From Drouetiella hepatica Uher 2000/2452 (lineage in GTDB: Bacteria > Cyanobacteriota > Cyanobacteriia > Elainellales > Elainellaceae): 64,000 nucleotides of DNA. Positions within the stretch are counted from its first letter, which is position 1; each line of letters starts with the position of its first letter. Of the stretch, positions 1 through 55,438 are shown in pieces. The position numbers were made by a program, and so were the translations under genes. The DNA lies in the NCBI GenBank assembly GCA_019359505.1, contig JAHHHD010000019.1:1-64000 (forward strand), written 5' to 3'. The notes beneath the pieces were generated by a model that worked only from the letters and a program-made list of their open reading frames with translations, was not told the DNA's origin and ran no database searches.

Positions 1-147
1 TATCAATTTCCGTATATACAAATAACTTATAATAAGGATATACTTGACATTTAATATGCATCAATATAGTTTCAGAAACTATATTGATGCATATTAAATG
101 TCAAGTATATCCTTATTATAAGTTATTTGTATATACGGAAATTGATA
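1..147. repeat. Perfect 147-bp palindrome (73-nt arms around A74) abutting the window start
   Basis: Positions 1-73 are the exact reverse complement of 75-147, checked base by base. The arm could continue beyond the window edge. Confidence 0.95.
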
Positions 148-240
148 AGGACTATGTATGGCACCGTTTCACTCCTCAACTATGCGATCGCCTGTGTAAT
201 CTGTGAAAGCCTTGTATATCAATAGTTGTGGCGTTTACTG

Positions 241-546
241 GGTTTATCCATATCAGAAATTGTATATACATCTATATTTGTATTCATATCAATGATAGGC
301 ATATCTATATCAGGATTGTATATACATGACACATCTATATCAGAACTGCTTATCCTTATTTGTATTTTTGTTGGGCGACTGATAGAGATATAAGAGATTT
401 ATATCGGTCGAATTATCAAGGTTTTAGCCTAAAGCTATGTACTTAGAGCTTTCCACGGTTTGAATGTATATGTGTATCTTTACTAAATAGTTTAGATAGT
501 GATTGCAATTTGATATAGATAACACTATGATATAGATGTGGATAAG
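241..546. promoter_or_regulatory. Iteron-like repeat cluster with a consensus DnaA box; candidate origin or operator region
   Basis: There are two copies of ATATCAGRAWTTGTATATACAT (249-274, 305-328). The ATCTATATC core recurs at about 270, 303 and 333, and inverted (GATATAGAT) at about 511 and 529. TGTGGATAA at 537-545 is TTATCCACA on the minus strand. Confidence 0.5.
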
Positions 547-619
547 TTGATACGTTTCAAGTTCTTCTTCGGCTCACCTCCAGCGGCTCTCGCTTCACTA
601 GCCGATCATCCTTTCATCA

Positions 620-994
620 ATGGAGTTTCAAACCATGACCGCTCAAGACTTCCTAACTGCTCTCTCGATCTCGACTTTGATTTTCTCTGTTCTCAACTTT
701 GGTTTATTGTTCGTCATCGGCATGGCTGACCGTTCACGGCTCCTCAGCCAGACGGCTAAGCTTCCTCATTCACCTACGCCCACTATCGCCCTTCCTGCTC
801 TTATCCTGCCTTCCATATCGGTAAATCAAGCAGACCAAAACCTAGATTCTCAGCTAAGACAGATTGCACAGCTCGATCAGGTAGCAACTGATTCACGCTT
901 AACCGCTATCGCTCTTCGCTCTACAGCAAAGAAGAGCCGCAAGACAACAACTAAGGCTAAGACCCTCAACAAAACCTCTACAGCCTCTCTATAG
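620..994 (+). CDS. Hypothetical protein with an N-terminal TM helix; an in-frame TAG at 992-994 is followed by 50 more open codons to 1147
   Basis: From the ORF track. A hydrophobic stretch LSISTLIFSVLNFGLLFVIG sits near the N-terminus. The in-frame extension encodes a HeH/SAP-like motif (SDLRNLCSTHQIAWRDANGKNQYLTKAQMLSAL). Confidence 0.5.
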   Translation: MEFQTMTAQDFLTALSISTLIFSVLNFGLLFVIGMADRSRLLSQTAKLPHSPTPTIALPALILPSISVNQADQNLDSQLRQIAQLDQVATDSRLTAIALRSTAKKSRKTTTKAKTLNKTSTASL

Positions 995-1248
995 ACCAAC
1001 TCAGTCAAAAAGCACCCATCTGTCAGTGATCTACGAAACCTCTGCTCAACACATCAGATCGCATGGCGTGACGCCAACGGCAAAAATCAATACCTGACTA
1101 AGGCTCAAATGCTCTCAGCTCTTTCGCAAAAAGGAGTAAGAGTCTAACAGCACCCTACGCCTGTCTGCTAGGAGCGGGCAGGCAGAAATAGAAACTGTTA
1201 TCAGGGATAAGACAAATCTCAGACAAACAACTATAGGACTCTCAACTC

Positions 1249-1656
1249 ATGGCTAGACCTGTTTACGAAATCATCTATTCCAAGCTTCAGAAAGTTTTAG
1301 GAGACCTCTCTCAGCTACCTGACTCTATGAAGCTTGAAGCTCCTGGCTTTATGGATCTAAGTATGAACGTTCTGGAGAGAGAATCTGACCATATCAGAAT
1401 TGCACTCTCTCACTACTACTCGCAAAACGGGGATCTAGTTCCTGATCCAGATATGGAAATTCGCATTTTTCCAGAGTCGGAAATGGCAGAAGCTATGACA
1501 TATCAAGACTCTTACAGCTATCAGGAAGTCTATCCTACACCTCAAACCGTTAGCCCTCGACTAAAGGTTGAACTAAACCGTTTTCTTAACCAGTGGCTTA
1601 CAAACATCATTGACCAGAAGCACAAGCCAGTACAAAGCAAGTCTCATACTGCCTAA
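1249..1656 (+). CDS. Hypothetical protein (135 aa)
   Basis: Clean ORF with an ATG start and no overlapping competitor. No motif recognised with confidence. Confidence 0.55.
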   Translation: MARPVYEIIYSKLQKVLGDLSQLPDSMKLEAPGFMDLSMNVLERESDHIRIALSHYYSQNGDLVPDPDMEIRIFPESEMAEAMTYQDSYSYQEVYPTPQTVSPRLKVELNRFLNQWLTNIIDQKHKPVQSKSHTA

Positions 1657-2051
1657 CCCTCATATATCACTCTAGGGAAGGAAAATTATCTTATGTACTG
1701 TGCAATTCCTGTATCAACCTAACTGATTAACATAACTCATTAGTCTCTAAAAGCCTTGCGTAAAGGGACTTTCAAGAATCCTAATATCGTCCATTTTATG
1801 TCTAATAAGTATCATCTAGTTGACAATTTATCGTTCACAGACCATTCGCAGTAAGTCAGGAGTGTTAAGGAAAGATTGGGAATACTAAATTACCATCTAA
1901 ATGATGATAAATAGATGTAAAATGGATGATTCTATAACTGCTGAAAGCTATGTAGGATAGGCTTTTAAGCTGTTATGACGAGCATACTTAAATAGTGCTC
2001 TTATAGATAATTTTTACAGCATAACTTGTTTTTCTTTTTCTAGAGTGATTA

Positions 2052-2535
2052 ATGAGGGCTAAGATGCAAAACTCTATTTTTGACCTATCACAAGATGAAA
2101 TAGAGGCATTCTCTGAGCCGATCGCCTTAAAGCCTCTCTTGAGCTTTAAGGCGATCGCTCATAGCGACCTTAACTGCTGGACAACTGAAGCTGCCAAAAT
2201 CTGCTCTCTAAAAGAGCTACAGACGCTCTATCGTATAATCGGCATTCCTCGCAGTGGGAACCTCAACAAGGTTCTCTTTCGCCCGGTCATCGGTCGAATC
2301 GGCGGAGATGCTCTATCGGCTCAGACAGTTCGACCGAAACCCAGACAAGGATCACACAGTCCAGCAGGTTCAGTTCTTGGCTCAAGCCTACAGCGGCGAA
2401 GAGCTAAAGACATTCTGCAAGATTGCGGGTATCTATGCTCCATCCACTAAGTACGGAATGGCAGCAGCACTGATCAAATTCAGAAGAGCTGCTAGAAGAA
2501 GAGGAATGGAGTTTATCGCACAAGCTCAAAAATAA
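2052..2535 (+). pseudogene. HeH/SAP-motif protein split between two overlapping frames (2052-2450 and 2254-2535); frameshift near 2300
   Basis: Frame 1 carries SLKELQTLYRIIGIPRSGNLNK. The +1 frame carries a second similar motif, YSGEELKTFCKIAGIYAPSTKYGMAAALIKF. Both frames look protein-like only on their respective sides of about 2300. Confidence 0.45.
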
Positions 2536-2935: not shown

Positions 2936-3736
2936 ATGCTAATAATCTCTGCTATGTCTCTGTCCGGTGGACAAGGAAAAAGCAGCACAATTTTATTTAC
3001 GGCTAAAATGCTTGCCGAAGCTGGTTACACAGTTTTAGCAGTAGATGCAGATCCACAAGGCAATTTATCTACGTTTTTACAGCATGACTTACAGCCGAAC
3101 GAGCCAACCTTGCTTGAAGTTGTGAAAGGCTCCGTAGCTTTGGAAGACGGCATTTATCCCGTAAAGGACTACGATCGCTTGTTCCTCATCCCTGCTGACG
3201 ATGCCTTAGAAGGGTTGCAAGACTACCTCAGCACTAGCGGAATAGGGGCTTTGATGATGAAGCAGCGGCTAGAGCCAGCCAAGGGCAATTTTGATATTTG
3301 CCTAATAGACCCTCCTCCTCAGAGATTCCAGCTAAGTCGCTCAGTTATAGGAGCATCAGAGCAAATCATCATTCCAGTAGAGCTAAATGTTAAGGGCTTT
3401 GGAAGCTTAATCAGAACTACTGCCGCAATTCAAGAATTCATTGAATTCAAAATTTGCCATCCTGAAATTCTAGGGGTGCTGCCCTTTAGAGATCGTTGGA
3501 CTGGACTAAACAGGACTATTGAATGTGAGACATGGTTAAACCATATGCAAGGAGAGATAGCGCCTGAATTGTTTCTACCCTCTTTGCGAGAATCGACAAA
3601 AGTAGTACGGGCGATCAGTTCAGGTTTGCCTCTATCGGCTCTGACTTCACCAGAAGACAAATACCCGTTAGATGAGCCATTCAAGGAATTGCTAAAAAGA
3701 GTGACAAGTAAGATGGAGAAACATTCTAATGTCTGA
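2936..3736 (+). CDS. parA: ParA/Soj-family partition ATPase
   Basis: Deviant Walker A SLSGGQGKSST, the DADPQGNLS motif, a 266-aa size, and repeat arrays on both sides of the operon. Confidence 0.9.
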   Translation: MLIISAMSLSGGQGKSSTILFTAKMLAEAGYTVLAVDADPQGNLSTFLQHDLQPNEPTLLEVVKGSVALEDGIYPVKDYDRLFLIPADDALEGLQDYLSTSGIGALMMKQRLEPAKGNFDICLIDPPPQRFQLSRSVIGASEQIIIPVELNVKGFGSLIRTTAAIQEFIEFKICHPEILGVLPFRDRWTGLNRTIECETWLNHMQGEIAPELFLPSLRESTKVVRAISSGLPLSALTSPEDKYPLDEPFKELLKRVTSKMEKHSNV

Positions 3737-4136
3737 CGCCAGTAAAGACATGGTAGATCGCATCAAGAATCGTGCGGGAAGGGCAACCGTCCCAGAGCGT
3801 AATATGTCACTTGTTGAAATCTCTCCGAGTAAACCAGAAGCCCCTAACACACCAAGCTCTCTCCCTTCTAGTTCTGAACTAAAAGGGCTTCCTGAAGTTG
3901 GATCAAGGAGGCAGATTAGACTGGAAACCGTGTTAGATTCTGAAATTGAAGATTTTTGCAAGCGGAATAAAATAACGATGGAAACCTACTTTGAAGCACT
4001 TCACCTTGTCTGTAAAGGCAATGCCGGACTGGTTGAAGAAGCTATAAAGGAGGCTAAGGAGAGACTTTTAGCTAGGAAAAAAGCGGGTAGAATCAGACGT
4101 TTACAGACCCAGATAAAACAAGAATTCACTGAGTGA
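3729..4136 (+). CDS. Probable centromere-binding partner of ParA (ParB/ParG-like adaptor, family unrecognised)
   Basis: 8-nt overlap with the parA stop suggests translational coupling. It is a small charged protein in the position expected of a par adaptor. Confidence 0.5.
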   Translation: MSDASKDMVDRIKNRAGRATVPERNMSLVEISPSKPEAPNTPSSLPSSSELKGLPEVGSRRQIRLETVLDSEIEDFCKRNKITMETYFEALHLVCKGNAGLVEEAIKEAKERLLARKKAGRIRRLQTQIKQEFTE

Positions 4137-4206
4137 TTTGTAAATTACATCATTTATGAATTACACAATTTGATAATGATGTAATTTACAAATTGTGTAA
4201 TTCATA
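4137..4206. repeat. Second centromere-like repeat block downstream of the par operon
   Basis: Blocks TTTGTAAATTACATCAT and TTATGAATTACACAATT are followed by their reverse complements in the same order (1,2,1',2'). These are the same two motif families as at 2753-2930. Confidence 0.55.
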
Positions 4207-4267
4207 AATAAATCAGTTTATTGTTTCTAGTTTATGGTTTATTGTTCTGTCGAGCCTTTTAATTTTT

Positions 4268-4308: not shown

Positions 4309-5220
4309 ATGAAAAAGCAAAGTCAAACTATTCCAATACTTATCGAAGTTTTTTCTGTTGACTCAGAGAGTCAGAATAGACTGGATCTGTTCATCTGCAA
4401 TACTATCAATTTCAGTCCTAAAGACGATCTGGGAAGTATGGAGTATCCTGTCTTCACATTATCAACTAAGCGAAAATACAATGTCAGACGATATGAGAGA
4501 AATGGAACTTTTATTGAGATAACTCCAAGTGTATTAGGTCATGCAACTATTTTTGATAATGATATTTTAATTTATTGCATAAGCCAGCTAGTTGCAGGTC
4601 TAAATGCAGGTCGACAAATTGGAAGAACTGTAAGGTTTCCGGCTTTTAATTTTTTTGCTAACACTCATCGAGATGCAGGCGGTAAGGAATATTCTCTATT
4701 AGCCCAATCACTTGTGCGATTGAGAGGTACAACCATAACTTCAAATTTAACCACTGAAGATCCCATCACAAAAGAAGTTACCAAACTTGTTGGAGCAGGG
4801 TTAATTGAAAATTTTACAATCTATAAAAAATCAGCAGAAACAGAGGAAATAGGTACAGTCGAAATTACTCTATCTAAATGGCTCTATAACGCCGTACAAG
4901 CCAAAGAGGTTTTAACCCTTGATCAGAAATATTTTGAGTTACGGAAAGCCTTAGAACGTCGGATATACCTTTTAGTGCGTAAGCATTGCGGAAATCAACC
5001 AAGCTGGAAAATTAGCCTTAAGCTGTTACTGGAAAAAAGTGGTTCTGAATCGGAAAGAAGAGAGTTTAGAAGAATGATAAAATTTATTTGCGATAGTGAC
5101 ACTCTTCCAGGCTACAAAATGAACTATGTTGAGACAGAAGACTTTGTTTTATTTCAAAATAGAATTAATAAAGAAACTGTAAAAGATGCAATCACACAAC
5201 TCGTTCTAAACCTAAAATAG
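4309..5220 (+). CDS. repA: Replication initiator protein A (RPA / PF10134-like RepA)
   Basis: N-terminal pattern MEYPVFTLSTKRK...IEITPSVLGHATIFDNDILIYCISQL...RTVRFPAFNFF...GGKEYSLLAQSLVRLRGTTITSN matches my recollection of the RPA family consensus. Iterons lie immediately downstream. Confidence 0.8.
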   Translation: MKKQSQTIPILIEVFSVDSESQNRLDLFICNTINFSPKDDLGSMEYPVFTLSTKRKYNVRRYERNGTFIEITPSVLGHATIFDNDILIYCISQLVAGLNAGRQIGRTVRFPAFNFFANTHRDAGGKEYSLLAQSLVRLRGTTITSNLTTEDPITKEVTKLVGAGLIENFTIYKKSAETEEIGTVEITLSKWLYNAVQAKEVLTLDQKYFELRKALERRIYLLVRKHCGNQPSWKISLKLLLEKSGSESERREFRRMIKFICDSDTLPGYKMNYVETEDFVLFQNRINKETVKDAITQLVLNLK

Positions 5221-6072: not shown

Positions 6073-6384
6073 ATGTACACGAAACCCAAACTAATTTCAT
6101 TCAGGATGGAAGGCAGAGAACTCACAAAGCTAACTAATCGAGCTGCTGAGTTTGGAATAAGCCCTGCTGTTTTTGCTAAAAAGCTTGTCAGCGATAATCT
6201 TGAAAGGAAAACGGATGAAGAGCTAACAGAGCAGTTTGAGCTGTTGCAAAGCAAGATTGAGGCTTCAAATGAACGGGTTCTCTCCTACATCAAAGAAGTC
6301 TTCTATGTGCTAAGCGATATTCCACGAGAAGAGCTTGATAAAATACTCACCCCAGATACCCTTACTTCAGCAACAGATGATTAA
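6073..6384 (+). CDS. Relaxosome accessory protein, ribbon-helix-helix / MobC-like
   Basis: AAGGAG RBS 6 nt upstream. The N-terminal KPKLISFRMEGRELTKLTNRAAEFGISPAVFAKKLV fits an RHH pattern, and the gene sits directly upstream of the relaxase. Confidence 0.6.
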   Translation: MYTKPKLISFRMEGRELTKLTNRAAEFGISPAVFAKKLVSDNLERKTDEELTEQFELLQSKIEASNERVLSYIKEVFYVLSDIPREELDKILTPDTLTSATDD

Positions 6385-6401
6385 TTTTTTCAAATACTTA
6401 G

Positions 6402-7679
6402 ATGTTGACAATCTCTGCCGTTGGTGGTGGCAAATGGAAATACTTCCTCTCGATCGCTAAAGAAGAGCTTCTCAGCGAGGAAGAGATAGAAGGGTACTGG
6501 CTTGGGGCTGGGGCTGAGAAGATTGGGCTTAAAGGAAACGTCAAAAAGCAGCATTTTAAGAACGTTTTTGAGGGGTTTGCACCCAGAAACAAGCAAATAA
6601 AGCTTGTTAGGAATGCAGGTGGTGCTGACAGACAGGGCGGCTGGGACTTAGTTTTCTCTGCTCCAAAATCGGTAAGCGTTGCCTTTAGTCAGCTCTCAGA
6701 TAAAGTGCCAGAAAAAAAGACAATTCTTGAGATCCATCACAGAGCTTTAGAGAAGGGAATTGATTTTCTAACTGAGCAGACCTACACAAGACGTTTTGAA
6801 ACTGGGGTAGGGAAAAGCGAGGAAAGAGCGGGACTTGTCATTGCTGCCTTTACTCACCAAACCTCAAGACTCAATGACCCACTACTTCACACCCATGCCC
6901 TCTTTATCAATCTTTGCTCACGCGCGGATGGCTCTACAGGCTCAATTAACAGCCGTCAACTGTATGTACTCCAAAAAGAAGCCGGAACGTTATACAGGGC
7001 AGAATTAGCCCTCGGGCTAGAGCATCATTTAGGGCTTCGCCTGCACCGTAAAGAGAGCTGGTTTGAGATTGACGGTATCCCGGATGAAGCCATAGATTTC
7101 TTCTCAAAGCGTCGAAATGAGATAGAAGCACGGCTTAATAAGCTTGGCTTTCACTCAGCTCAGGCTAAAGAGTACGCAAACTTTGATACTCGGAAAGCCA
7201 AGGGATACAAGAGCAGGCATGAGCTTTTCTTGGACTGGCAGGAACAGGGAAAGGCTTTAGGACTCTCAGAAGGGCTTATTCTTGACCTGTTTGGGAAAGA
7301 GCAGATCAGACGCGATCGCACTGAACAAATTCAAATCGTTGTGGATGAGGTCTCTAAGCGTCTGGCTCAGAGCAATAAACCGTTCACTAACCGGGATGTT
7401 TATCGCCTGGTCGCAGAAGAGTCACAATGCAGAGGGGTAGGGCTTGAACTTGCCTGCTCGATCGCTAAAGGCTATCTGGCTTCTGATGATGTCCAGATGA
7501 TAAAAGAATTCCAGAAGAGCCAACTTTACGAGAGTAAGCGTCAAGAGCCTCTAATCCAAGCATCTCAAAATATTGATACGGATAGGGATAGAGATTACAT
7601 CTCACATCGACCCATCATAGAAATTCCAAGGGCTTCAAACATGGGTCAAATCGAGCATACTCTTATCATTCAACGGTAG
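6402..7679 (+). CDS. MOBF / TrwC-type conjugative relaxase domain protein (no helicase domain)
   Basis: N-terminal MLTISAV...GYWLGAGAEKIGLKG and the histidine triad HQTSRLNDPLLHTHALF. Confidence 0.85.
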   Translation: MLTISAVGGGKWKYFLSIAKEELLSEEEIEGYWLGAGAEKIGLKGNVKKQHFKNVFEGFAPRNKQIKLVRNAGGADRQGGWDLVFSAPKSVSVAFSQLSDKVPEKKTILEIHHRALEKGIDFLTEQTYTRRFETGVGKSEERAGLVIAAFTHQTSRLNDPLLHTHALFINLCSRADGSTGSINSRQLYVLQKEAGTLYRAELALGLEHHLGLRLHRKESWFEIDGIPDEAIDFFSKRRNEIEARLNKLGFHSAQAKEYANFDTRKAKGYKSRHELFLDWQEQGKALGLSEGLILDLFGKEQIRRDRTEQIQIVVDEVSKRLAQSNKPFTNRDVYRLVAEESQCRGVGLELACSIAKGYLASDDVQMIKEFQKSQLYESKRQEPLIQASQNIDTDRDRDYISHRPIIEIPRASNMGQIEHTLIIQR

Positions 7680-7684
7680 GAGAT

Positions 7685-36739: not shown

Positions 36740-37534
36740 TTAAGCTCCTACTCGACCGTAGGCAGGCATATCATAGGTTTCAGCTCTACGGGCTTCATTC
36801 CAGGCTCTAGCAATCTGAGACTTGTGATCAGGAACATCATCCTGCTGTGCATATGCAAGCCGTCTTCCCTGCTTTACTGTTGTGCTGGAGATTGAGCCTA
36901 TGACTTCGCCTGCGTCGGCTGAAAGCTTTGCTAACTGCTCTCCAAAGTCTTTTTGAATAGCAGATCTTAGCTGTACATAGTCTGTCCGGGAAGGGTGGTC
37001 TTGTCCGTGCAGGTCAGAAATTCTAGCTTCAGTCTCGCTTCTTATGGAGGAAAGCTCCTTACTGTATAGACTTGTGAGCTGCTGCTTGTCAGCCTGGGTC
37101 AAGTTTGACTTTTCAATAGCTCTGATAGCTCCAAGGACTGGCTTACCGTTTATCTCAAGTTCACCTGTCTGAAGGGATAGAGCAGCGTTTACAAGACCAT
37201 TTCTCACAAGCTGTAAGTCTTGACCAATATCGGTTTTAATCTCCTCAACTAAAGCACCTCTTGCTTTTCTGTCTGCCTCCAGACCATCAGAAACAAACTT
37301 CTCAACCCTTCCACCGATCGCCCGTGCCGTCGAAGTCACAAGCTCAAGTGCTTCCTCTTTGAACTGCTCAGGCTTGGTTATGACTGTGACGGCTGCTCCA
37401 AGTCCAAACTTTGCAACTGTTGAGACAAGAGAGAATCTTGAGGCTAGATTGCCTAGAGTGTTTCCTGCCTGCTCCAGGGCTTTTTCACCTGCTTGAACGA
37501 AACTTTGAGAATTAGAATTTACTGCCTGAGACAT
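36740..37534 (-). CDS. Hypothetical helical protein (264 aa)
   Basis: Clean ORF with no recognised motif. Confidence 0.5.
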   Translation of the reverse strand: MSQAVNSNSQSFVQAGEKALEQAGNTLGNLASRFSLVSTVAKFGLGAAVTVITKPEQFKEEALELVTSTARAIGGRVEKFVSDGLEADRKARGALVEEIKTDIGQDLQLVRNGLVNAALSLQTGELEINGKPVLGAIRAIEKSNLTQADKQQLTSLYSKELSSIRSETEARISDLHGQDHPSRTDYVQLRSAIQKDFGEQLAKLSADAGEVIGSISSTTVKQGRRLAYAQQDDVPDHKSQIARAWNEARRAETYDMPAYGRVGA

Positions 37535-38026
37535 ACAACAACCAATTAATGAATGATTTTTAGAATAAAAAAGATACTGTTTTATAACTAAGTTTTAGTC
37601 AGTAATCAAGGATTGTCTTGGTAGTAGTGAGAGGGTTCTTATCTGTGAGTTTTCGGAAGGCTTTTACGGTCATTAACAAAAACATGACTTTACAAAAAAA
37701 AGAGACGTTACCTCTAGGTCGATGAAAACCTAGAAGTAACGTCTGAAAACAAAGTGTGTTTGACAAACAAAGCACATCTTTACAAGGACTTATAGTATCA
37801 ACAATTTTTTTAGATTAATCAATATTTTTTATAAAAATAACTCTCGCAGTAGCCATTTAATAAGAAAGCAGAGTTTAAGCGTTTAATTTGCTCATTCCAG
37901 TTTAATCCTGTCTTCATTCTCATTAATTTTCCCATTCTAAAAGCTTGGTACAGATACACCTATGCAGCAGAGCTGTAAAAAGTGCGTTTTTGAACCAAAA
38001 ATTAATTACTTTAATATGGAAAATAT

Positions 38027-38581
38027 ATGGGAAAGAGATTTGATAAAAAAATAGGATTATATACAGTACCATCCGAAAGAACATCAATTTATATTGCAGA
38101 CTTAGCAGAATACAATGATGGAAACTTAGAAGGGGATTGGTTTGAGATTGATGATAGTACAACAGTTGAAGATGTACATGCAGCAATTAAAGAAATTTTA
38201 GAACGAGGCGTTTCAGATGGCTCACCGCATGAAGAATGGGCAATTCATGACTATAACAACATTCCGCTTGATAGTGAGTATCCAGACATTGAGTTAGTTT
38301 TGAAAGTTGCTAGTTTAGTGAGAAAACATAGTTACGAAGAAGTAGCAGCATTTCTAAAGCATTTTGATGAGACCCAAATTGATGATTTTGAAAGGCGTGC
38401 AATGGGTATATACAGCTCAGAAGAAGAATACTTAGATGAGGTAAACGATTTTTCAAGTATCCCCGAAAAATTCTTGACTTATTTAGACTATAAAAAAATG
38501 TTTAGAGATTATGAGCTGTCTGGAGAGATTATTCGAGAAGATGTATTCGGCGGCGATTTCATTCTTTTTTACAATCATTAA
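38027..38581 (+). CDS. ardA: ArdA-family antirestriction protein
   Basis: IYIADLAEYNDGNLEGDWFEIDD...HEEWAIHDYNNIP matches the ArdA N-terminal pattern. The protein is acidic. Confidence 0.9.
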   Translation: MGKRFDKKIGLYTVPSERTSIYIADLAEYNDGNLEGDWFEIDDSTTVEDVHAAIKEILERGVSDGSPHEEWAIHDYNNIPLDSEYPDIELVLKVASLVRKHSYEEVAAFLKHFDETQIDDFERRAMGIYSSEEEYLDEVNDFSSIPEKFLTYLDYKKMFRDYELSGEIIREDVFGGDFILFYNH

Positions 38582-38619
38582 AAAAGGGATTTTAACATCA
38601 TTTTTACAAGGAAATAAAC

Positions 38620-39048
38620 ATGATAAAAAACAAAGAAAGTGTACGTATTAAGGCAACACAGTCAGACAAACAAGAAACGCTCGTTAAAACACTTAAAGAA
38701 CGAGATTTATTTAGATTCTATGGTACGGAACAATATTTTAAGCACTGGCTTGGAATATATATATATACAGATGGAATTAAATACTTAGCTGAGCATGGTA
38801 AAGCTCATTGGCTTATTGATGAAATAGTTTTTTACCAAAAAGACTTAAGAATCAAAAATGATGAAATGCTTCAAAGTATTCAATTTTGGAATTTAATTGT
38901 GAACAAAGACTCAACAGCAGAATTAATATGTGAAAGAGACGAGGGAGACGTAGCGTTAAAGAAGGATATTGATTATACAGACTTTCCTTTAGAAAAAGTT
39001 ACTATTTACGTTCAAGAAAATGTAATTTTACTTCCTAGTGAATACTAA
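38620..39048 (+). CDS. Conserved plasmid protein downstream of ardA (tentatively DUF6876-like)
   Basis: LFRFYGTEQYFKHWLGIYIYTDGIKYLAEHGKAHWLIDEI resembles a family I recall being adjacent to antirestriction genes. The assignment is tentative. Confidence 0.5.
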   Translation: MIKNKESVRIKATQSDKQETLVKTLKERDLFRFYGTEQYFKHWLGIYIYTDGIKYLAEHGKAHWLIDEIVFYQKDLRIKNDEMLQSIQFWNLIVNKDSTAELICERDEGDVALKKDIDYTDFPLEKVTIYVQENVILLPSEY

Positions 39049-39106
39049 CTTACATAAATAATATAAACAAAATAATTTTAATATCACTTTCTACACACAC
39101 CGCGAA

Positions 39107-39180
39107 AGAGTTATTAACAGGGCTAAAGGCTTACGAGGCTTTTAATTGCCTCTCCAGCCTAAAGCCCTGTTAATAACTCT
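39107..39180. other. Long imperfect hairpin (~74 nt) in the ardA-side intergenic region
   Basis: AGAGTTATTAACAGGGC (39107-39123) pairs perfectly with GCCCTGTTAATAACTCT (39164-39180). Further partial pairing and an inner GAGGC/GCCTC stem extend it. Confidence 0.7.
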
Positions 39181-39299
39181 AACGCTCCTGCACTTGTAAC
39201 GCACACAGCAGCAATACACCCATGCAGCAAAGCTGCCTTTGTGCATATACAAAAGTATATGCATTTTACAAAAACAAAAAAAATTACAAGGAAACACAA

Positions 39300-39577
39300 T
39301 GAACACAGAAACTACAGAAACTATAGAGGAATTCATCCCAAACAAACCATTTCTAGTACAGAACATAAACTTCTTATCAGCTTCAGAGCTTATGGAAGAA
39401 GTTCAAAAAAGAGACTTCCTAATCGGCAGTTTATACGAGCAAGTCGAAGAAGGGAAAAACCAGTATGAATTTTCAAGCGAGAAAATGTACATACAGTACA
39501 AAAAGTATCTATTATTAAATACTCTGTACTTCATTTCAATTTTTACTCTTTTTCTGCTCTTAGAAGGCGGCTCTTAA
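39300..39577 (+). CDS. Small hypothetical protein with a C-terminal TM helix (92 aa from ATG 39300)
   Basis: ATG 39300 is chosen over the track start at 39239. The C-terminus is LLLNTLYFISIFTLFLLL. Confidence 0.4.
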
Positions 39578-39863
39578 TTAATCAAATAATTTATTTTTTA
39601 CCTGAAAAAAAGCTTGATTTTATTAAGAATTTCAGGTACTTTATTTCTTCACACCCATGCACCCAAGTAGATACAAAATCAACCAAGTGCATATACGAAA
39701 CCATTACACAGCAAGCTCTTTTCCTGGTATACACATTCGATCGCCCCAGTAACTACCCAGGTTAACCACCATCTTCCAACTACTTCCAATACACACAAAA
39801 ACTAACCTGTAACAAGTAAAATGCTTTAGCTATAAGGTTATTTTCTTAAGGCAGAATCCGATC

Positions 39864-40202
39864 GTGTCTAAAAACAACCAAAAGCGACCATGCGGGGGTA
39901 GGACTAAAAGGGCAAACTACAAAACGGTAGTGATCCGAGTGCCGGTTCCGTTAAAAGCTCAGGTAGAAGGGCTGATTTCTGCCTTCCATGAAGAGAACGA
40001 TCGCTATTTGGCTCTACCTATCGCCGGCTCCTGGTGGGAAGTGCTAGGGGTGTCTCCTGGTGCGTCTGTTGATGAAGTGAAGCAGTCTTATCGATCGCTT
40101 GCTCGTCTGTATCATCCAGATAGCAACAAGCGGAGAGACGCGGAAGCAAGATTTGCTGCTCTCAATGAGGCTTACAGAGCTTTCCAGGCAGGTAACAGCT
40201 AA
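39864..40202 (+). CDS. J-domain (DnaJ-like) protein
   Basis: WWEVLGVSPGASVDEVKQSYRSLARLYHPDSNKRRDAEARFAALNEAYRAF contains the HPD motif. The start is GTG. Confidence 0.8.
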   Translation: MSKNNQKRPCGGRTKRANYKTVVIRVPVPLKAQVEGLISAFHEENDRYLALPIAGSWWEVLGVSPGASVDEVKQSYRSLARLYHPDSNKRRDAEARFAALNEAYRAFQAGNS

Positions 40203-42332: not shown

Positions 42333-44027
42333 TTATTCTATTGATAATTTGTCTCTATCAATTTCATCAAACACATGGCTCTGGAGATCAGTATCTAAAT
42401 CGTTTTCATCAAAATCATTGCTCTTGAGAGCTGCAAAGAATTCAGTTAAGTACTCTGCATAGTCGAATTTATATTCAATACTTTTCTTATTTAAGTCTTT
42501 CAAACGATTGTTAAGGGAATTCGTCCTGAAAGACTCATATAGTGTAGTTTCTCTAAAACGAGTAACGGCAGCGTATAAATGAGAATACTCACGTAGTGCT
42601 CTTTTCAGGTTATAAGCTATTGGTGTAGCGTTTTCTTTCAAAAACCTCAAAGTACTTAGCCTCATAACAGCAATGGTAAAGTCAGGATGTATATAATACA
42701 ATAAAGTTCTGATCGCTGTTTCAAAGTAAGATGCTGAGTAAAAATACAACATCTCTATTTCATATAAAATCTCATATATCTGAAGAGTATCGGCAGTTTG
42801 AAGTTTTTTAGTTTCTCGACTAGCCAGATCATAAAGCAACCTCCCAAATAGAGTATAAAAATATGGGAAACCTCCATACTCTGTATCTACACCTTCTGTA
42901 ATTCTTTTATAAGCTTCCTCATAATAAGCTTTAGCAATATCCAGGTCTCCTTTATATTGAGCTATGAGTCCTTCTGTAAAAGGATTTTCAAACCCATACA
43001 TTCTTCTCAAATCATCATAATAATCTAGCTCCTTACGTATAGATAATTCTTGTGCTTCTGCAAAAAAGAACATTCCATATCGATCCGCCATTAGGGCGGA
43101 TATCTTCAATTGGTCAAAATGCTCAAAAAGAATACTCGGAGGCTTAGGTGCATATATGTAAAATAATCTATATGATTTTGCTAAGTAATTAACAGCGGCA
43201 CTAAAACGCATTTTCCGTATGAGAAACTTTCCAAATTGGAAGCAAACCATTCTTTCCTGATCGTTCCCAAAAGGGAGATCTAAATGTTGGTATATCTCAT
43301 AAGTTTTATTAAAGACCTCCATTAGTTCTGGTTGAGTAACCTCCGGTTCGACTTTTTTTAGCTCATTAAGGGCATCTGAAAAATTATTTAGAACTTGTCG
43401 ATAACTCAAATCTTCGTCTGTATCCAACTGAGCTAAAAAAAGATATGCGTTTGCTCTGATAAGTCCAAGAGTAGGGATATCTTCTGATGGGCTTATGTGC
43501 TTCAAATGTAGTATAGCTAAAGACAGAATTTTCCTAGCTGTATAATATTTTTTCCTGATTTTATAGTACAGTCCAAGGTAGCTCAGGCAAACGAGATATT
43601 GGATGGAATTTTTAAGTCCACCTTTGACATAAATACGTATGCCTTGAGTGCATAACTGTTTTGCTTCCTCATTATGCTCTCTTGCAAAGTAAAGCCCAAT
43701 TAATTTTGTCGATAGATGGTTGAAACTTTGTAAATAGAAAGGCTCATTTTTTTGAAGCAGTGATAACCCCTTCTTCAAATAATGAACTGCGTCATCGTCT
43801 CTGTCATAGTCTTCATAATGGCAGCCTAAGAGATGCCCCAAGAATGAAACTTCTAAATTAGTTAAAAGGTGACTAAAATCTGAGAAATAATAATTTATGT
43901 CTTCTATAAAAGGAGAAATATGTAAGAAAGCAAACCGAGCCTGGCTCGTCCATAATCTCTTAGGCACCTGCGAACATTTACGTACAAATGCCTTTATCGC
44001 AAGTTTGTACACTTTATCATTACTCAT
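42333..44027 (-). CDS. TPR-like helical-repeat protein, the probable sensor half of a split STAND NTPase
   Basis: 8-nt overlap with the upstream NB-ARC gene. Repeated amphipathic helix pairs occur throughout (e.g. AKAYYEEAYKRITEG), in 564 aa. Confidence 0.65.
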   Translation of the reverse strand: MSNDKVYKLAIKAFVRKCSQVPKRLWTSQARFAFLHISPFIEDINYYFSDFSHLLTNLEVSFLGHLLGCHYEDYDRDDDAVHYLKKGLSLLQKNEPFYLQSFNHLSTKLIGLYFAREHNEEAKQLCTQGIRIYVKGGLKNSIQYLVCLSYLGLYYKIRKKYYTARKILSLAILHLKHISPSEDIPTLGLIRANAYLFLAQLDTDEDLSYRQVLNNFSDALNELKKVEPEVTQPELMEVFNKTYEIYQHLDLPFGNDQERMVCFQFGKFLIRKMRFSAAVNYLAKSYRLFYIYAPKPPSILFEHFDQLKISALMADRYGMFFFAEAQELSIRKELDYYDDLRRMYGFENPFTEGLIAQYKGDLDIAKAYYEEAYKRITEGVDTEYGGFPYFYTLFGRLLYDLASRETKKLQTADTLQIYEILYEIEMLYFYSASYFETAIRTLLYYIHPDFTIAVMRLSTLRFLKENATPIAYNLKRALREYSHLYAAVTRFRETTLYESFRTNSLNNRLKDLNKKSIEYKFDYAEYLTEFFAALKSNDFDENDLDTDLQSHVFDEIDRDKLSIE

Positions 44028-45372
44028 AATCTTGATTAGACACTTTATTTCGGAAAAACTCGCGAAGTAATGGATGAAGCCGATAAGTTAAATCTTTAAC
44101 TGGTTTTAGTAAATTCAAGCTAATAAATTTACTCCTACTTTTATCAAGATTAACAAGTTCATCAGTGTTTATTGCAGAATTTTCTTCTAGTTCGATCTGC
44201 TTCATTAATTCTACAACTGTCCAAGCAATATCTGTTCGGGGTGGAAGATGCCCTATAAAGATGGCAATCTCTTGGGTCTCTGAATCAAGAATCTTCCAAG
44301 TTAATTCAAAAGCAGCATCGAGACCTCTACGTGCAGTAAGAGACCAATTAGGATTTTGCTGGAAATCTCCCTGAAAAGCTTCATGATGAAGGGCTTCTTT
44401 CCTGGAGGCAAATTCTTTTAATTGGGATAGAAGAAGTGAGGTTGGAATGCCAGACTCAATCGCTAAATATCTCCCTGCCAACTCAATCCCTAATGGCAGG
44501 TCTCCAAGAAATTCACACAGTTCTTGTGAGAGTGGATCGTCATAGAAAATGGTTTCATTTTCTGACAACCATTTAAGAAGTTCTATTGAATCAATTCGGT
44601 CAAGCACATCTAAATCAAAAAATATAAATGGATCTCTAAGTTTCAAACGAGTTGTAACTACAACCTTAAAACGATTATCACTAAATAATTCAAGAAAAGA
44701 CTTAATTTCTTCGTATTTTTCAATATCATCAAAAATGATAAGAACATTACCCTTAGTCCAATTATCTATACAAAACTGAACCTGATCAGAAGTGCTCAGA
44801 GGAATATTTAGCTTAAGCTTATTTTTAGAGAAAGATATAATCTGGGAAGCGATGCTTAGTTGATTTGAATCATCTGTTCTTACAGAAATCCAGCAAATAC
44901 CCCCAGGATAGTGCTGAAAGTATTTTTTGGCATATTGGATAGAAAACTCAGTTTTGCCAACTCCGCCCATACCGGATACTGCAACCCTCATCCTCCCTGG
45001 CTTTTGAAGTTCGGCGTGTAATTTCTTAAGTCTGTCGTCTCGTCCAAAGAAACCACCATCTCGAACCCCGCTTTCCAAAACGTTATGTGGTGGTTCAGAA
45101 AAGGAATGCTCAGGCTCTACTTCCTGTTCATCGCCCCAGTCCACTATAGACTCCCAATCTGTAATACCTAATTTTTCGCAGATAGCCAGAAATTTCTTAG
45201 CATCAACAGGCTCTCCCTTGAAAAACTGCCTTACTGCGTCCTTACGGGCATTTGGAGAGTCAGTTATGAAAGCTTCTAGGGTAGGGTACAACCTCTCTCG
45301 AAGACGAATGACAAAATCTAGCTTGCCCTTGCGAACAGAATACTTAGTCCTGTGGCGAGTCTGCTTGGTCAT
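44020..45372 (-). CDS. NB-ARC (STAND) NTPase with an N-terminal HTH-like domain
   Basis: Walker A VSGMGGVGKTEF, Walker B VLIIFDDIE, VVVTTR, and the GLPLAL-equivalent GDLPLGIELAGRYL. An XRE-like segment lies at the N-terminus. Confidence 0.85.
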   Translation of the reverse strand: MTKQTRHRTKYSVRKGKLDFVIRLRERLYPTLEAFITDSPNARKDAVRQFFKGEPVDAKKFLAICEKLGITDWESIVDWGDEQEVEPEHSFSEPPHNVLESGVRDGGFFGRDDRLKKLHAELQKPGRMRVAVSGMGGVGKTEFSIQYAKKYFQHYPGGICWISVRTDDSNQLSIASQIISFSKNKLKLNIPLSTSDQVQFCIDNWTKGNVLIIFDDIEKYEEIKSFLELFSDNRFKVVVTTRLKLRDPFIFFDLDVLDRIDSIELLKWLSENETIFYDDPLSQELCEFLGDLPLGIELAGRYLAIESGIPTSLLLSQLKEFASRKEALHHEAFQGDFQQNPNWSLTARRGLDAAFELTWKILDSETQEIAIFIGHLPPRTDIAWTVVELMKQIELEENSAINTDELVNLDKSRSKFISLNLLKPVKDLTYRLHPLLREFFRNKVSNQDYE

Positions 45373-46472: not shown

Positions 46473-46588
46473 TTGCCACTAGGATAAAACGCTTAAAAAA
46501 GGAGCCAAGACTTCCATAAGCCCCTTGGCTCCCTCAACTTAACTGTTAAACCATACATAGCTCTTCCAAGCAAAGGACAGTCACTCAA

Positions 46589-46837
46589 ATGAACAATATC
46601 GACCTAAGAAAACGCATGGTTCTGTTTGTTTTAGGCATGGGCTTAATCGGTGGAGCATTAGGCTATGCCGTAGGCTGTAAAGATGGTGCTTCTTGCAAAC
46701 TTAATCCAACATTACGCTTAGTAGCCATAGCTCAAGGAGCTGGTGCTGGCTGCGGTGCCGCAATTGGTGCAAGCCTGCCTGCCTTACTCTCCTCAAATGC
46801 TTCTGAATCAAATAGGAGAAAAAAAGGCACTAAATGA
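46589..46837 (+). CDS. Small Gly/Ala-rich membrane protein (82 aa)
   Basis: MVLFVLGMGLIGGALGYAVG and AQGAGAGCGAAIGASLPALL hydrophobic segments. Confidence 0.5.
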   Translation: MNNIDLRKRMVLFVLGMGLIGGALGYAVGCKDGASCKLNPTLRLVAIAQGAGAGCGAAIGASLPALLSSNASESNRRKKGTK

Positions 46838-46942
46838 TACCTCTTAAGCGATAAAGGCAATCGCCAGGTCATCACACATGATCTTTTTACTCAATCTAGT
46901 TCTGTAGATACAGCACTCCAAAAAAACTAGAAAGATAACAAA

Positions 46943-47254
46943 GCAAAGGACTGTCACTCAAATGATCGATATCGACCAAAGAAAATGAATAATTCTATTC
47001 ATTTTAGTTACAGGGCTAGTAGGTGCGTCGTTATTCTTAGCCATACGCTGCAAAAATAGTGCCTCTTGCAAACATAATCCAACATCTTGTGCAAGCCTTA
47101 ATGCCTTAAAACCTGCAAAGGCTTCTGAACTAAATAGGAGAAGGAAAAAGGCAGTAGATGATATCTCTTAAGCGATAGCGGAAGCTTATCGCCAGGTCAT
47201 CACATACGGTCTTTTCTGCTCAATTTAGTGCTGTATATACAGCACTCCAAAAAA
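46943..47254 (+). pseudogene. Decayed tandem duplicate of the 46570-46942 unit
   Basis: Copy 2 starts with GCAAAGGACTGTCACTCAAATGATCGATATCGACC, against GCAAAGGACAGTCACTCAAATGAACAATATCGACC in copy 1. It reaches a TGA after 8 codons, has internal deletions, and its 3' flank is conserved through ACAGCACTCCAAAAAAA. Confidence 0.6.
47227..47246. promoter_or_regulatory. Perfect 20-bp palindrome AGTGCTGTATATACAGCACT upstream of MOB module 2; oriT or operator candidate
   Basis: Exact 10+10 inverted repeat, 8 nt before the RHH gene ATG. An imperfect copy lies at 46898-46917. Confidence 0.3.
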
Positions 47255-47614
47255 ATGAGAAGCAAGCAGATAGAAACTATTAGTTTCAAACTAGATGAGC
47301 AAACAACCGACAAGCTTAAAGCAATAGCTCTTCAAAGCAACATATCTCATCACGGAGCAGCAAGGGCAATTATTATAACTGCCCTTTGCTCCTCGCCGGC
47401 TGAAGCTAGCACAACTTCTCTTCCAGGTGCATCAGGTGAACTAAAAGCTGACCTGTCTTACCTCAACTCGCACTTAGAGCAGATAACCTCTGCTCTAGCC
47501 GCTCAGAGTAAATTCTCAAGCCTTCTAGCAATCTTGCTACTTGTGAATATGGGGGTAGCTTCCGAGGAAGCAGAAAATGCCGTTTCAGAGCTTCTGGAGG
47601 CAAGCAGATGGTAG
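47255..47614 (+). CDS. Relaxosome accessory RHH protein (module 2)
   Basis: MRSKQIETISFKLDEQTTDKLKAIALQSNISHHGAARAIIITAL parallels the module-1 RHH protein. The ATG at 47255 is preferred over the GTG at 47228. The gene overlaps the relaxase start. Confidence 0.55.
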   Translation: MRSKQIETISFKLDEQTTDKLKAIALQSNISHHGAARAIIITALCSSPAEASTTSLPGASGELKADLSYLNSHLEQITSALAAQSKFSSLLAILLLVNMGVASEEAENAVSELLEASRW

Positions 47615-49493
47615 CGTCCGTGAGTATTATAAGTGGCTCTAGCGGTGATTACTTCACAAGAGCAATTGTCTATTACAAAAGTGAGGATCGAGAACCTGAA
47701 AAGGGTGAGCTTCAAGGTGAGTTTTATGGCTCCTTTGCAAAGAGTCTTGAGCTAGATAGGCAGGCGATCGCACACAAGGATAGACGCTTAAGTTCGCTAA
47801 TGCAGGGGATAGATCCGACAACGGGGAAGGTGCTGAGAAAAGGTGGCAAAACGGTTGATGAAAGTGGAGTTGAGAAGAAAAAGAATTCGTCGGTTGGAGC
47901 AATTGATATTACCTTTTCAGCTCCAAAAGATGTGTCAATTGCAGCCTTTTTAGCCCCGGAGAAGGAACGGCTTCAAATTGAGAAAGCTCATAACGAATCC
48001 GTTAAAGCTGCCCTTACTCATCTTGAAGAAAACTATGCCTTTCTGAGAACAGCTTCAGGCAATGAGAAGGCTCAAATTGTAGCAGGCATCTTTGCACATA
48101 CAACTTCTCGTGATGGAGATCCACAATTACACTCTCATGGCGTAGTGCTTAATTCCTGCCAGGGCAAGGAGTCAGGGAAAACTGGGGCACTTGATGGCAT
48201 GGCTATTTTACAAGCTCAGCACAGGCTTGGAGAAATCTATCGGAACGAATTACAGCACAAGCTAGAAAATTTAGGCTACATAACGCGACAAGTCTCTCTC
48301 CAGAGAGGCTACAGCTTCGAGATTACTAATATCGGGCTTACCCAGGAAGTAAGAGACCATTTTTCAAAACGAAGCGAAGCGATCGATAAAGAAGTAAGTG
48401 AGCATCCTGAAAAGTCACGCTCAAAAGCTGCTGTAGATACACGAAAAAAAAAGAGGAGAAAGTTGATAGAGCTGCTTGCTTTAAGCGGTGGAAAGCTGAA
48501 GGACTAGCTTTAGGGCTTGATCTAGAAAAGCTTAAATTAAAAGAGAAATCTTTAACTCAAGGACAAAAAGAAACTACTAAAGGAGAACTTGAAAAGAATG
48601 TTCTAAGAACACTTGTAAAAAAAGAAGCTCTTAAAGCTTTTACCGAGAAAGAGGTTTCATCAGCAGTCTTGAGACAAAGTAAGGGGCAATTTTCAAGTAA
48701 AGAATGTGAACAAATATCTAAAGAAATAATCAACAAGAATCTTCGAGAGATTGGGAGTGATTTAGAAAGATGGAAAAGACAAGACAAGGAAAAGCCACTT
48801 CACCTACGTATTAAAACAAATAAATCTTACACGTTAAGGAGAATGAGCAATGAGATTCAAAAAAGGCTTGGAACAGTTGAGCAGCAAAGACTTTCAGATA
48901 TCTATTCAAAGAGAGAAGAGCTTAAAGCTAAAAGCCTTGAGAAGCAAACCCTTGAAGGCAATAAGGCACGTCTATACACATTAAATAAAGAAGGAAGAGA
49001 AAAAGTAAAAGACTCTGCATATGCAATAGTGCGATCGAACTTTGCGCCCTGGCTTCAAAAGCTTTTACCAGAAGGGCAAGCTTTAAGTTATGAGTATCGA
49101 CAAAAACAGTTTGAGAAATCAAAACAAAAATTTGCTAAAAAGCAAAAACGATTTGAGAAAAGACAAAAACAGTTCAAAAGAAAAATGTTCTTTGCCTACA
49201 TGAAAGGGCATATCTCAAGGTCAAAGTATATACAAATTCGAGACGGCAAGAAACAAGAAAAATCAAAGATTTTGATACAAGTAAAATACGCAACGCACAA
49301 CATGAACAAAAAACAACGTGATTACTTACTCCGAAAACTTGATAAAGCCCAAACAAAAGTTGAAGAGAAAAAGCTGTCAAGCAGATTTTCAACTACTCCG
49401 CAAAAAGAACCAGTTAAGGAGAGAGAAAAAGAGAAGCCCAAAGAGCAGCCGAAAGAAAAGCAAAAAGAAAAGTCAAAAGAACGTGATAGGTAA
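47608..49493 (+). CDS. MOBF/TrwC-type relaxase (module 2) interrupted at an A9 run; the zero frame stops at 48507 and the -1 frame continues to 49493
   Basis: HTTSRDGDPQLHSHGVVLN histidine triad. After the A9 run (48444-48452), the -1 frame reads KKEEKVDRAACFKRWKAEGLALGLDLEKL. This parallels relaxase 1 RKAKGYKSRHELFLDWQEQGKALGLSEGL. The -1 frame is open from 48447 through the track ORF 48669-49493. Confidence 0.75.
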
Positions 49494-49499
49494 CTAACA

Positions 49500-50192
49500 A
49501 TGCAAACACGTAGTGAAACAAAAAGACGACTTAAGAAAACACTGGGAAGCCTTCTATGTCTGGCATTTGGAGTATATACAGGAAGAGTAATAGGGTTATT
49601 TATCGGAAGATTAGTTTTTTACACCTTACAGGCACATTCAACGTATGGGTTCTTTACCTGGATTGTGTCAGTGGCAATAGGAGTTAGAACTGAAGAGTTA
49701 ACAGCAGAAAGCTTAGCTCAAGCAATGAGTAGCTTTGAAAACTTTTTTCGCCTACTTGGAATGGTTTTCTTTGGAGAAGCGGGGGTAAGAGTTCATTACT
49801 GGTACTACTATTTAAGAGGCATTAAAACTTACCATGCATTTACGTTTGATAGCTTTAGAAAGCACTTTTTCCATATTGATAACGCCTATGTTGATATGCT
49901 CTGGGCTTTAATCTATGTGGTAAGCCTTGATACGGTGCGGGGTGTTTTGTGCTTTGTAGCAGGAAACGCTGTGTATGGTTACTTTTCTGGCATCTTGGGG
50001 TTTTACGCTATATTTCCAACACTTTTTGCAATCATACTAATTTTTCAGTGGGCAACTGAAACTGTAAAAAACGTTCTTCATCCACATCGAATTGAGTGGG
50101 AAATTCAAGATAGTTCGCTCATTAAAGCAGTGCTTTCAAAACGAGAGGAAGAGAACCTTTTAGGCAGAGGTCGAGAAGAGGAGGATGAATAA
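49500..50192 (+). CDS. Polytopic membrane protein, the likely detached TM domain of the downstream T4CP
   Basis: 4-5 hydrophobic helices and an 8-nt overlap with the T4CP gene. T4CP 1 carries an equivalent TM region fused to it. Confidence 0.55.
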   Translation: MQTRSETKRRLKKTLGSLLCLAFGVYTGRVIGLFIGRLVFYTLQAHSTYGFFTWIVSVAIGVRTEELTAESLAQAMSSFENFFRLLGMVFFGEAGVRVHYWYYYLRGIKTYHAFTFDSFRKHFFHIDNAYVDMLWALIYVVSLDTVRGVLCFVAGNAVYGYFSGILGFYAIFPTLFAIILIFQWATETVKNVLHPHRIEWEIQDSSLIKAVLSKREEENLLGRGREEEDE

Positions 50193-54874: not shown

Positions 54875-55438
54875 ATGCCAACGGTGTACGTAATAGGTGG
54901 GGCGAATGGAGCAGGAAAGACTACCACATCTCTAATTCTCTTACCGACCAGCTTGAACGTGATCGAGTTTGTTAATGCTGACGCTATTGCTGCTGGAATT
55001 TCTCCATTAAATCCTGAGTCAATGGCAATGCAAGCAGGAAGAATCATGCTTGAGCGCTTAGAGCTGCTCTCATCCTCTGGAGCCAATTTTGCATTCGAGA
55101 CAACGTTGGCATCCCGGACTTTTGCCCCGTTTCTGCGAAAATGCAAGGATAGAGGCTATGCGATCGCTCTAATCTACTTTTGGCTTCGTAGCGCTGATCT
55201 GGCGATTGAGCGGGTATCAAGGCGAGTTGCAGCAGGAGGACACTCAATACCAGATGATGTAGTGCGACGACGATATGAGAGAGGGCGAACTAATCTAACA
55301 AGCCTATATCTTCCTTTGGTTGATGAATGGATGATTTTTGATAATTCAGAGTCAGAATCAATACTTGTTGCAGAACAAGAATTAGGACAAAATCAAGTTA
55401 TCTACAATAACGATATATGGAGTCAAATTAGAAGGTAA
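54875..55438 (+). CDS. Zeta-toxin-like P-loop kinase (COG4185-type)
   Basis: VYVIGGANGAGKTT Walker A. FVNADAIAAGISPLNPE...FAFETTLASR...GGHSIPDDVVRRRYERG matches the family pattern. Confidence 0.8.
   Translation: MPTVYVIGGANGAGKTTTSLILLPTSLNVIEFVNADAIAAGISPLNPESMAMQAGRIMLERLELLSSSGANFAFETTLASRTFAPFLRKCKDRGYAIALIYFWLRSADLAIERVSRRVAAGGHSIPDDVVRRRYERGRTNLTSLYLPLVDEWMIFDNSESESILVAEQELGQNQVIYNNDIWSQIRR

Follow-up and report, generated by a model that had tools for sequence, protein, structure and literature searches.

A palindromic contig edge as a probable physical terminus, and candidate hairpin telomere, of a conjugative plasmid from the cyanobacterium Drouetiella hepatica

What kind of DNA lies behind a perfect palindrome placed exactly at the edge of a contig? 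We addressed this question for the first 64 kb (hereafter the window) of a 114,606-nt contig from the metagenome-assembled genome (MAG) of Drouetiella hepatica Uher 2000/2452. A sequence-only reading of the window had described a perfect 147-base palindrome at its edge, and this description is exact: bases 1-73 and 75-147 are 100% complementary, A74 is the single base between the arms and the sole unpaired position, and the symmetry centre is odd. As a single strand, the 147 nt fold with −73.1 kcal/mol, versus −9.2 ± 2.4 kcal/mol for shuffles (z = −26.5), and no inverted repeat of comparable size was found elsewhere in the 64 kb. Because the left arm ends at base 1 only where the sequence itself ends, 147 bp is the size of the assembled part and not an intrinsic size of the palindrome. 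The contig edge comprises the following elements, in which L001 denotes a contig from an independent k=31 assembly described below.

1-73, no strand assigned: most likely a loop-back copy, the exact reverse complement of 75-147; bases 1-67 are absent from L001
74, + strand: apex base A, which is also A in L001
68-80, + strand: 13-nt core AGTTTC-A-GAAACT; the k=31 contig starts exactly at 68
75-147, + strand: probable real terminal 73 bp of the replicon, AT-rich, with one GTATATAC site at 129-136

Segment 75-147 also holds an ATGCAT palindrome, located 13-18 nt from the apex. No second copy of the terminal sequence was found within the 64-kb window, and exact 24-mers of the arm gave 0 matches in the genome and metagenome contig collections. 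A search of viral contigs for the centre motif returned two unrelated short palindromes, both in phage contigs, and 16-mer matches attributable to chance.

Three explanations had been proposed for this palindrome: a hairpin telomere, a cruciform origin, and a fold-back created by long-read assembly. The last one is refuted by the origin of the data. For the culture metagenome, SRR12347860, DNA was sheared to 300 bp, made into a library by ligation and sequenced on an Illumina NovaSeq as 2x150 reads, and the MAG was assembled with metaSPAdes 3.13.0 alone, without long reads, the k-mer setting being given only as 'default kmer options' (PMC8354539). A missed SMRTbell adapter, or a nanopore read running from template into complement, would fit the position of the palindrome at the contig edge and nothing else; against it stand the NovaSeq 2x150 reads, the use of metaSPAdes 3.13.0 and the absence of adapter sequence at the palindrome centre. 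Since the data are Illumina only, a long-read fold-back is excluded, and we give it practically no weight. The second arm most likely stems from short-read loop-back.

The Logan collection holds an independent k=31 assembly of SRR12347860, with two contigs from this plasmid. L001 corresponds to window 68-1749 and SRR12347860_1961 to window 2187-27139, both being identical to the window over their readable parts. L001 dead-ends 6 nt beyond the symmetry centre, runs unbroken across 147/148 and shows no second flank. We simulated the k=31 unitig containing base 300 under alternative physical structures. An internal 147-bp palindrome with its own left flank yields a unitig that starts at 118, while a closed hairpin or an unresolved junction with full read-through yields a start at 75, as does any simulation that includes both centre bases. 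When the + strand of the DNA simply terminates at 68, the unitig starts at 68 and is 1682 nt long, as observed; among the simulated scenarios, this is the only one that matches L001. The other Logan contig served as a control: SRR12347860_1961 ends at 27139, exactly where a 32-nt direct repeat (27110-27141/27143-27174) should cause a break under the unitig rule, indicating that this Logan assembly breaks at repeats and not from thin coverage. As only the simulations in which the DNA ends at this point fit L001, we conclude that well-covered DNA stops at this contig end, which is probably a true physical end of the replicon, whatever its kind. We also considered that a repeat boundary lying at base 97 might cause the start at 68, and rejected this: a repeat to the left of base 98 would appear at 44-67 of the metaSPAdes contig, where the mirror image is found instead, the fold-back mirroring unique sequence out to 147.

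The replicon is a cyanobacterial plasmid, marked by HIP1 sites (GCGATCGC) and by its gene content. Its first 10 kb carry the following features.

620-994, + strand: small predicted membrane ORF without a family match
1249-1656, + strand: DUF6908/DUF1249 protein, identical to MBW4660232.1
2811-5220, + strand: maintenance module, consisting of AT-rich arrays and ParA/McdA-like, McdB-like and RepA genes
2936-3736, + strand: ParA/McdA-like ATPase of the maintenance module
3729-4136, + strand: McdB-like protein, which matches the carboxysome-positioning McdB family PF26392 though plasmid-borne
4309-5220, + strand: RepA of family PF10134, with 45-49% identity to alphaproteobacterial plasmid RepA proteins
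6073-9664, + strand: first transfer module, with a small ORF, a TrwC-type (MOBF) relaxase and a TrwB-type coupling protein

The two genes nearest the end, 620-994 and the DUF6908 gene, are similar to genes of the 'leading region', which conjugative plasmids transfer early. Among relatives, DUF6908 genes lie within conjugative elements, beside RadC and relaxases, and inside contigs; the contig of a close relative of this gene (JGI 3300033063) stops about 700 nt before the end. No relatives of the RepA were found in the genome contig collection, and neither the first 3 kb nor the first 620 nt had a match in PLSDB by megablast or blastn. A segment of about 0.4-0.5 kb (about 1646-2216) is missing from both Logan contigs (gap 1750-2186). 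The same segment is absent from the related plasmid of JGI 3300033063, where the sequence L004 joins window 1645 to 2059. It lacks terminal inverted repeats and contains only a 15-nt HIP1-containing hairpin at 2119-2157; probably, it represents a small repeat or insertion that also occurs elsewhere in the metagenome.

Two separate modules of a MOBF relaxase with a TrwB-type protein are present on this one replicon, at 6402-9664 and 47608-51924, and both relaxases (425 and 299 aa) consist of the TrwC domain only, with no helicase domain. Between the two modules, the plasmid carries a Tc-type (ABC) toxin complex, which occupies 10011-17978 and 21496-31434. The TcB/TcC-like ORF encodes 2655 aa with SpvB, TcdB mid-N, mid-C and FG-GAP domains, and the TcA-like ORF encodes 3312 aa with ABC_toxin_N, neuraminidase-like and TcA_TcB_BD domains and an N-terminal peptidoglycan-binding domain. 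Between these toxin ORFs lie a GH5 cellulase with a peptidoglycan-binding domain and a linocin/encapsulin-like ORF. The TcA-like coding region includes a perfect 32-nt direct tandem repeat with a 33-nt period (27110-27174), which encodes a Lys/Glu-rich stretch. Further along, a cluster of the anti-restriction/leading-region type (35080-40202) contains a RadC-like JAB protein, ArdA, DUF6876 and a DnaJ-domain protein; a 38-nt imperfect palindrome is found at 39102-39185. Defence-like genes, located at 42333-45372, 54875-55438, 55696-60117 and 62100-64000, include an NB-ARC ATPase with a TPR partner and a zeta toxin. There is also a Strawberry-notch-like helicase of 1473 aa (AAA_34 and Helicase_C_4), and a helicase-like ORF runs off the window end.

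Short motifs of the terminal palindrome had been reported to recur in the neighbouring iterons and at a distant palindrome, and we found this recurrence as described: GTATATAC occurs at 12, 129, 262, 318 and 47233, with a total of 8 occurrences versus 0.25 expected, and the longer TGTATATACA occurs at 261, 317 and 47232 (3 versus 0.02 expected). If the left arm is a loop-back copy, the GTATATAC sites at 12-19 and 129-136 are one site written twice. The link between GTATATAC and the iterons is real but not specific to the palindrome, because the arms carry a single site seen twice. The two other elements concerned are these.

246-545, no strand assigned: subterminal iteron array of ATCTATATCA-type repeats, with two TGTATATACA palindromes (261 and 317)
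47227-47246, no strand assigned: 20-nt palindrome AGTGCTGTATATACAGCACT with a TGTATATACA core, located just upstream of the second relaxase operon (47256-51924)

Three of the ATCTATATCA-type repeats (at 246, 303 and 333) lie on the + strand and three (at 380, 511 and 528) on the − strand, and 6 of the 15 one-mismatch matches in the 64 kb fall inside this 300-nt array. The array is probably a protein-binding array, for a regulator or an initiator. The TGTATATACA core common to the array and to 47227-47246 suggests a shared DNA-binding regulator, which would not be specific to the terminal palindrome. About 360 nt are duplicated in tandem at 46550-47260, upstream of the second relaxase operon; each copy encodes a small Gly/Ala-rich membrane peptide, and the first copy ends in the degenerate palindrome GTTCTGTAGATACAGCAC and the second in the perfect AGTGCTGTATATACAGCACT. 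The AT-rich arrays of the maintenance module (2811-2926 and 4141-4220) are made of AATTACATCATT-type inverted repeats that flank the ParA/McdA-like and McdB-like genes, and are probably centromere or operator sites.

How, then, does the plasmid end? The reading that we favour, with somewhat better than even confidence, is that a linear conjugative plasmid of the MOBF type physically ends, on its left, at base 74, and that it does so in a closed hairpin telomere. The terminal DNA would then comprise no more than 75-147 and the apex base, with 1-73 being the same strand after the turn-around; most likely, 1-73 is indeed a second reading of this DNA around the end, and not a separate duplex segment. 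A sheared fragment that contains a closed tip would have one ligatable end, so that both arms of the Y-adapter would be attached to one continuous strand, and a read would go down one arm, around the tip and up the other arm. A hairpin thus requires no coincidence, every tip-crossing read being palindromic automatically. Replication initiated close to RepA (4.3-5.2 kb) would pass around the hairpin and leave a head-to-head junction, which a telomere resolvase would cut and reseal into two hairpins. Cumulative GC skew reaches its lowest value near RepA, at about 3-6 kb, and from there climbs as far as 64 kb without a further reversal, a profile weakly in line with the linear-replicon reading. 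Of the three explanations proposed initially, the hairpin telomere is the one that is best supported, while the covalent closure of the tip and the existence of a resolvase are what we infer from it. Since no DNA beyond 75-147 and the apex base need be present, the accompanying premise of a palindrome that the cell must keep stable probably does not apply.

The hairpin reading also offers an account of the arm length. In a second simulation, we ran an iterative multi-k de Bruijn assembly on abundant DNA ending at 68 together with one loop-back insert, a fully read fragment with a 73-nt stem and a length of 147 nt, just below that of a 150-nt read. The simulated contig begins at base 1 when the final k is at least 77; if the final k is 55, closure of the loop puts the start at 75. 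The usual JGI k series presumably extends up to k=127. One 147-nt fragment with a 73-nt stem would thus suffice for a multi-k de Bruijn contig to end in this palindrome, and, in this model, the arm length would most simply correspond to the stem length of one sequenced loop-back fragment. A crossing limit of about 74 nt for a 150-nt read at the tip was considered and rejected, as reads that start farther out supply the missing k-mers.

The centre of the palindrome makes additional demands on this reading. Instead of the even centre with cuts 6 bp apart that characterises validated resolvase sites, a single unpaired A lies between the 73-nt arms, and such an odd centre would require an odd stagger of the resolvase. 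Moreover, if intact loop-backs had stems of 75-149 nt, A as well as T would appear beside 75, and the k=31 contig would stop at 75. The hairpin model therefore requires that most tip reads derive from hairpins broken open no more than about 6 nt from the apex and then filled in, and that intact loop-back fragments are rare. A bolder version takes the odd apex at face value, as an odd-apex hairpin or self-priming end that is kept by a resolvase with an odd stagger (7 or 11 nt), or without a protelomerase, for example by rolling-hairpin replication. We hold this version, set on a conjugative MOBF plasmid with Tc-toxin genes in a terrestrial cyanobacterium, to be a long shot.

The start of L001 at 68 also bears on explanations that dispense with a closed tip. 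The end might be open, or capped by a terminal protein, at 68, with the last 13 nt forming a small palindrome and the 3' end occasionally snapping back and being extended; the snap-back would take place during end repair of the library, or in vivo as rolling-hairpin replication, and the assembler would have used the rare fold-back. Without further assumptions, such an end predicts that the k=31 contig stops at 68 and shows A alone at the centre. A short terminal repeat with an interruption would naturally have an odd centre, and the deep fold-back does appear to depend on rare fragments. However, a 6+1+6 palindrome would fall exactly at the terminus with a chance of about 1 in 4096 unless it is functional, and a 1-nt loop is impossible, the best available fold being a 5-bp stem with a 3-nt loop. 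Genes for a terminal protein or a protein-primed polymerase were not seen in the 64 kb, and we know of no open-ended or terminal-protein plasmids in cyanobacteria. We consider an open or protein-capped end unlikely, and the same holds for its explanation by snap-back, whether in the library or in vivo.

A circular or unfinished replicon, to which one chimeric inverted read at the short AGTTTCAGAAACT repeat added an arm, is about equally doubtful. Library preparation is known to generate inverted chimeras at short inverted repeats, a single read pair can explain a 73-nt arm, and no protelomerase was found among the ORFs of the 64 kb, nor a Drouetiella name among the profile matches listed. Yet leftward DNA at normal coverage would have been followed by both assemblers, leaving no dead end at 68, and the other Logan contig breaks occur only at repeats. 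A repeat to the left of 98 would show at 44-67, a stretch that is instead the reverse complement of unique sequence out to 147. Finally, the plasmid could be a circle that contains a real duplex palindrome of at least 147 bp, which would serve as a cruciform origin, as a structure of the oriT type or as an operator. A contig built of whole graph edges would begin exactly at the outer edge of such a palindrome, and both iterons and relaxase-linked TGTATATACA motifs adjoin it. But the k=31 contig would then start at 118, from the branch at 147/148, and break at 75, whereas it starts at 68 and runs through 147, and nothing comparable exists in relatives of the neighbouring genes. A duplex palindrome is thus highly improbable, and the cruciform origin suggested initially, which needs duplex arms and a separate left flank, is contradicted by the observed start.

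Returning to the closed hairpin, we searched for the enzyme that would resolve it. No protelomerase (PF16684, the ResT/TelK catalytic domain) and no tyrosine recombinase was found among the ORFs of at least 90 aa in the 64 kb, using Pfam, PHROGs and NCBIfam for the former. A profile built from three cyanobacterial protelomerases gave 145 matches; no Drouetiella name appears among the 120 listed, most of which are nameless, and two protelomerase candidates from these matches belong to other cultures. In metagenome contigs, only 4 protelomerase loci were found, none of them with a terminal loop-back.

Cyanobacterial linear replicons with protelomerase-generated hairpins have been documented, loop-back NGS reads have been reported at hairpin ends, and inverted repeats at contig ends have been explained as hairpin read-through (Hsieh et al., bioRxiv 10.1101/2024.11.13.623437). 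In the same work, the validated TelT site of Leptolyngbya ohadii needs 28-bp half-sites (bioRxiv 10.1101/2024.11.13.623437). Like the L. ohadii TelT telomere, the Drouetiella end belongs to a filamentous cyanobacterial host and places an inverted repeat exactly at the contig end; both are AT-rich with TATA-type motifs, and in both AATATAG/CTATATT lies beside the centre. By contrast, the TelT site has an even centre, ATATA^GAATTC^TATAT, with a 6-bp stagger, where the Drouetiella end reads ATATA-GTTTCAGAAAC-TATAT, with 11 nt and an odd centre, and neither a protelomerase nor a TnsBCQ transposon is seen in the 64 kb. The similarity to the TelT site is confined to AATATAG/CTATATT: local alignment to the L. 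ohadii telomere arm scored 19, a score reached by 159 of 2000 shuffles, and alignment of the first 30 nt to the L. ohadii telomere scored 14, reached by 840 of 5000 shuffles, neither of which is significant.

Another parallel is provided by plasmid Cy782202 (NC_014534.1) of Gloeothece verrucosa PCC 7822, which is recorded in PLSDB as linear, as conjugative (MOBF/MPF_T) and as encoding a protelomerase; being both linear and MOBF, it sets a precedent for a linear MOBF conjugative plasmid. Cy782202 differs from the Drouetiella plasmid in its size (474 kb), in its replication module and in its deposited ends, which carry no loop-back, unlike the Drouetiella contig, and no DNA similarity was found between it and the first 620 bases of the window. 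In another Gloeothece plasmid, pP742401 of G. citriformis PCC 7424 (L010, NC_011738.1 325084-327630), a protelomerase gene lies about 1 kb from the end of the record and adjoins an IS4 transposase. This plasmid was deposited as circular, and its topology may deserve a second look.

In phage N15 (telRL/TelN), in Agrobacterium (TelA) and in Borrelia (ResT), the replicated hairpin forms a palindromic junction that a tyrosine-recombinase-like resolvase converts into two hairpins, as is well established (see also PMC3558466). The junction proposed here would likewise be cut and resealed by a resolvase; those three systems have even palindromes, cuts 6 bp apart and a known resolvase gene, whereas the Drouetiella centre is odd. 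Hairpin termini are also found in poxviruses and parvoviruses, where they occur in flip and flop forms, are replicated by a rolling-hairpin mechanism and have an apex that is not necessarily fully paired. An odd apex of this kind would give two forms, with A or T, after each round of replication; these are eukaryotic viruses with other enzymes, and in Drouetiella only the A form is present, in both assemblies.

Hairpin ends are already known in cyanobacteria, and the odd apex is the one unusual detail here. If the hairpin reading is true, the contig is the complete left end of a linear conjugative plasmid and not a fragment of a circle, and both the annotation and the closing of this MAG would change. 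An Oculatellaceae plasmid with two MOBF modules and a Tc-toxin locus would then join the few linear cyanobacterial replicons, bringing with it a candidate telomere sequence (GAAACTATATTGATGC) with an unusual odd centre. Should the odd-apex version prove true, this end would represent a new variant of bacterial telomere chemistry, in which a stagger of 6 is universal. More generally, where a short-read contig has at its edge a perfect palindrome about as long as one read, this would be a usable signature of a hairpin end, and not the mark of an unstable duplex palindrome.
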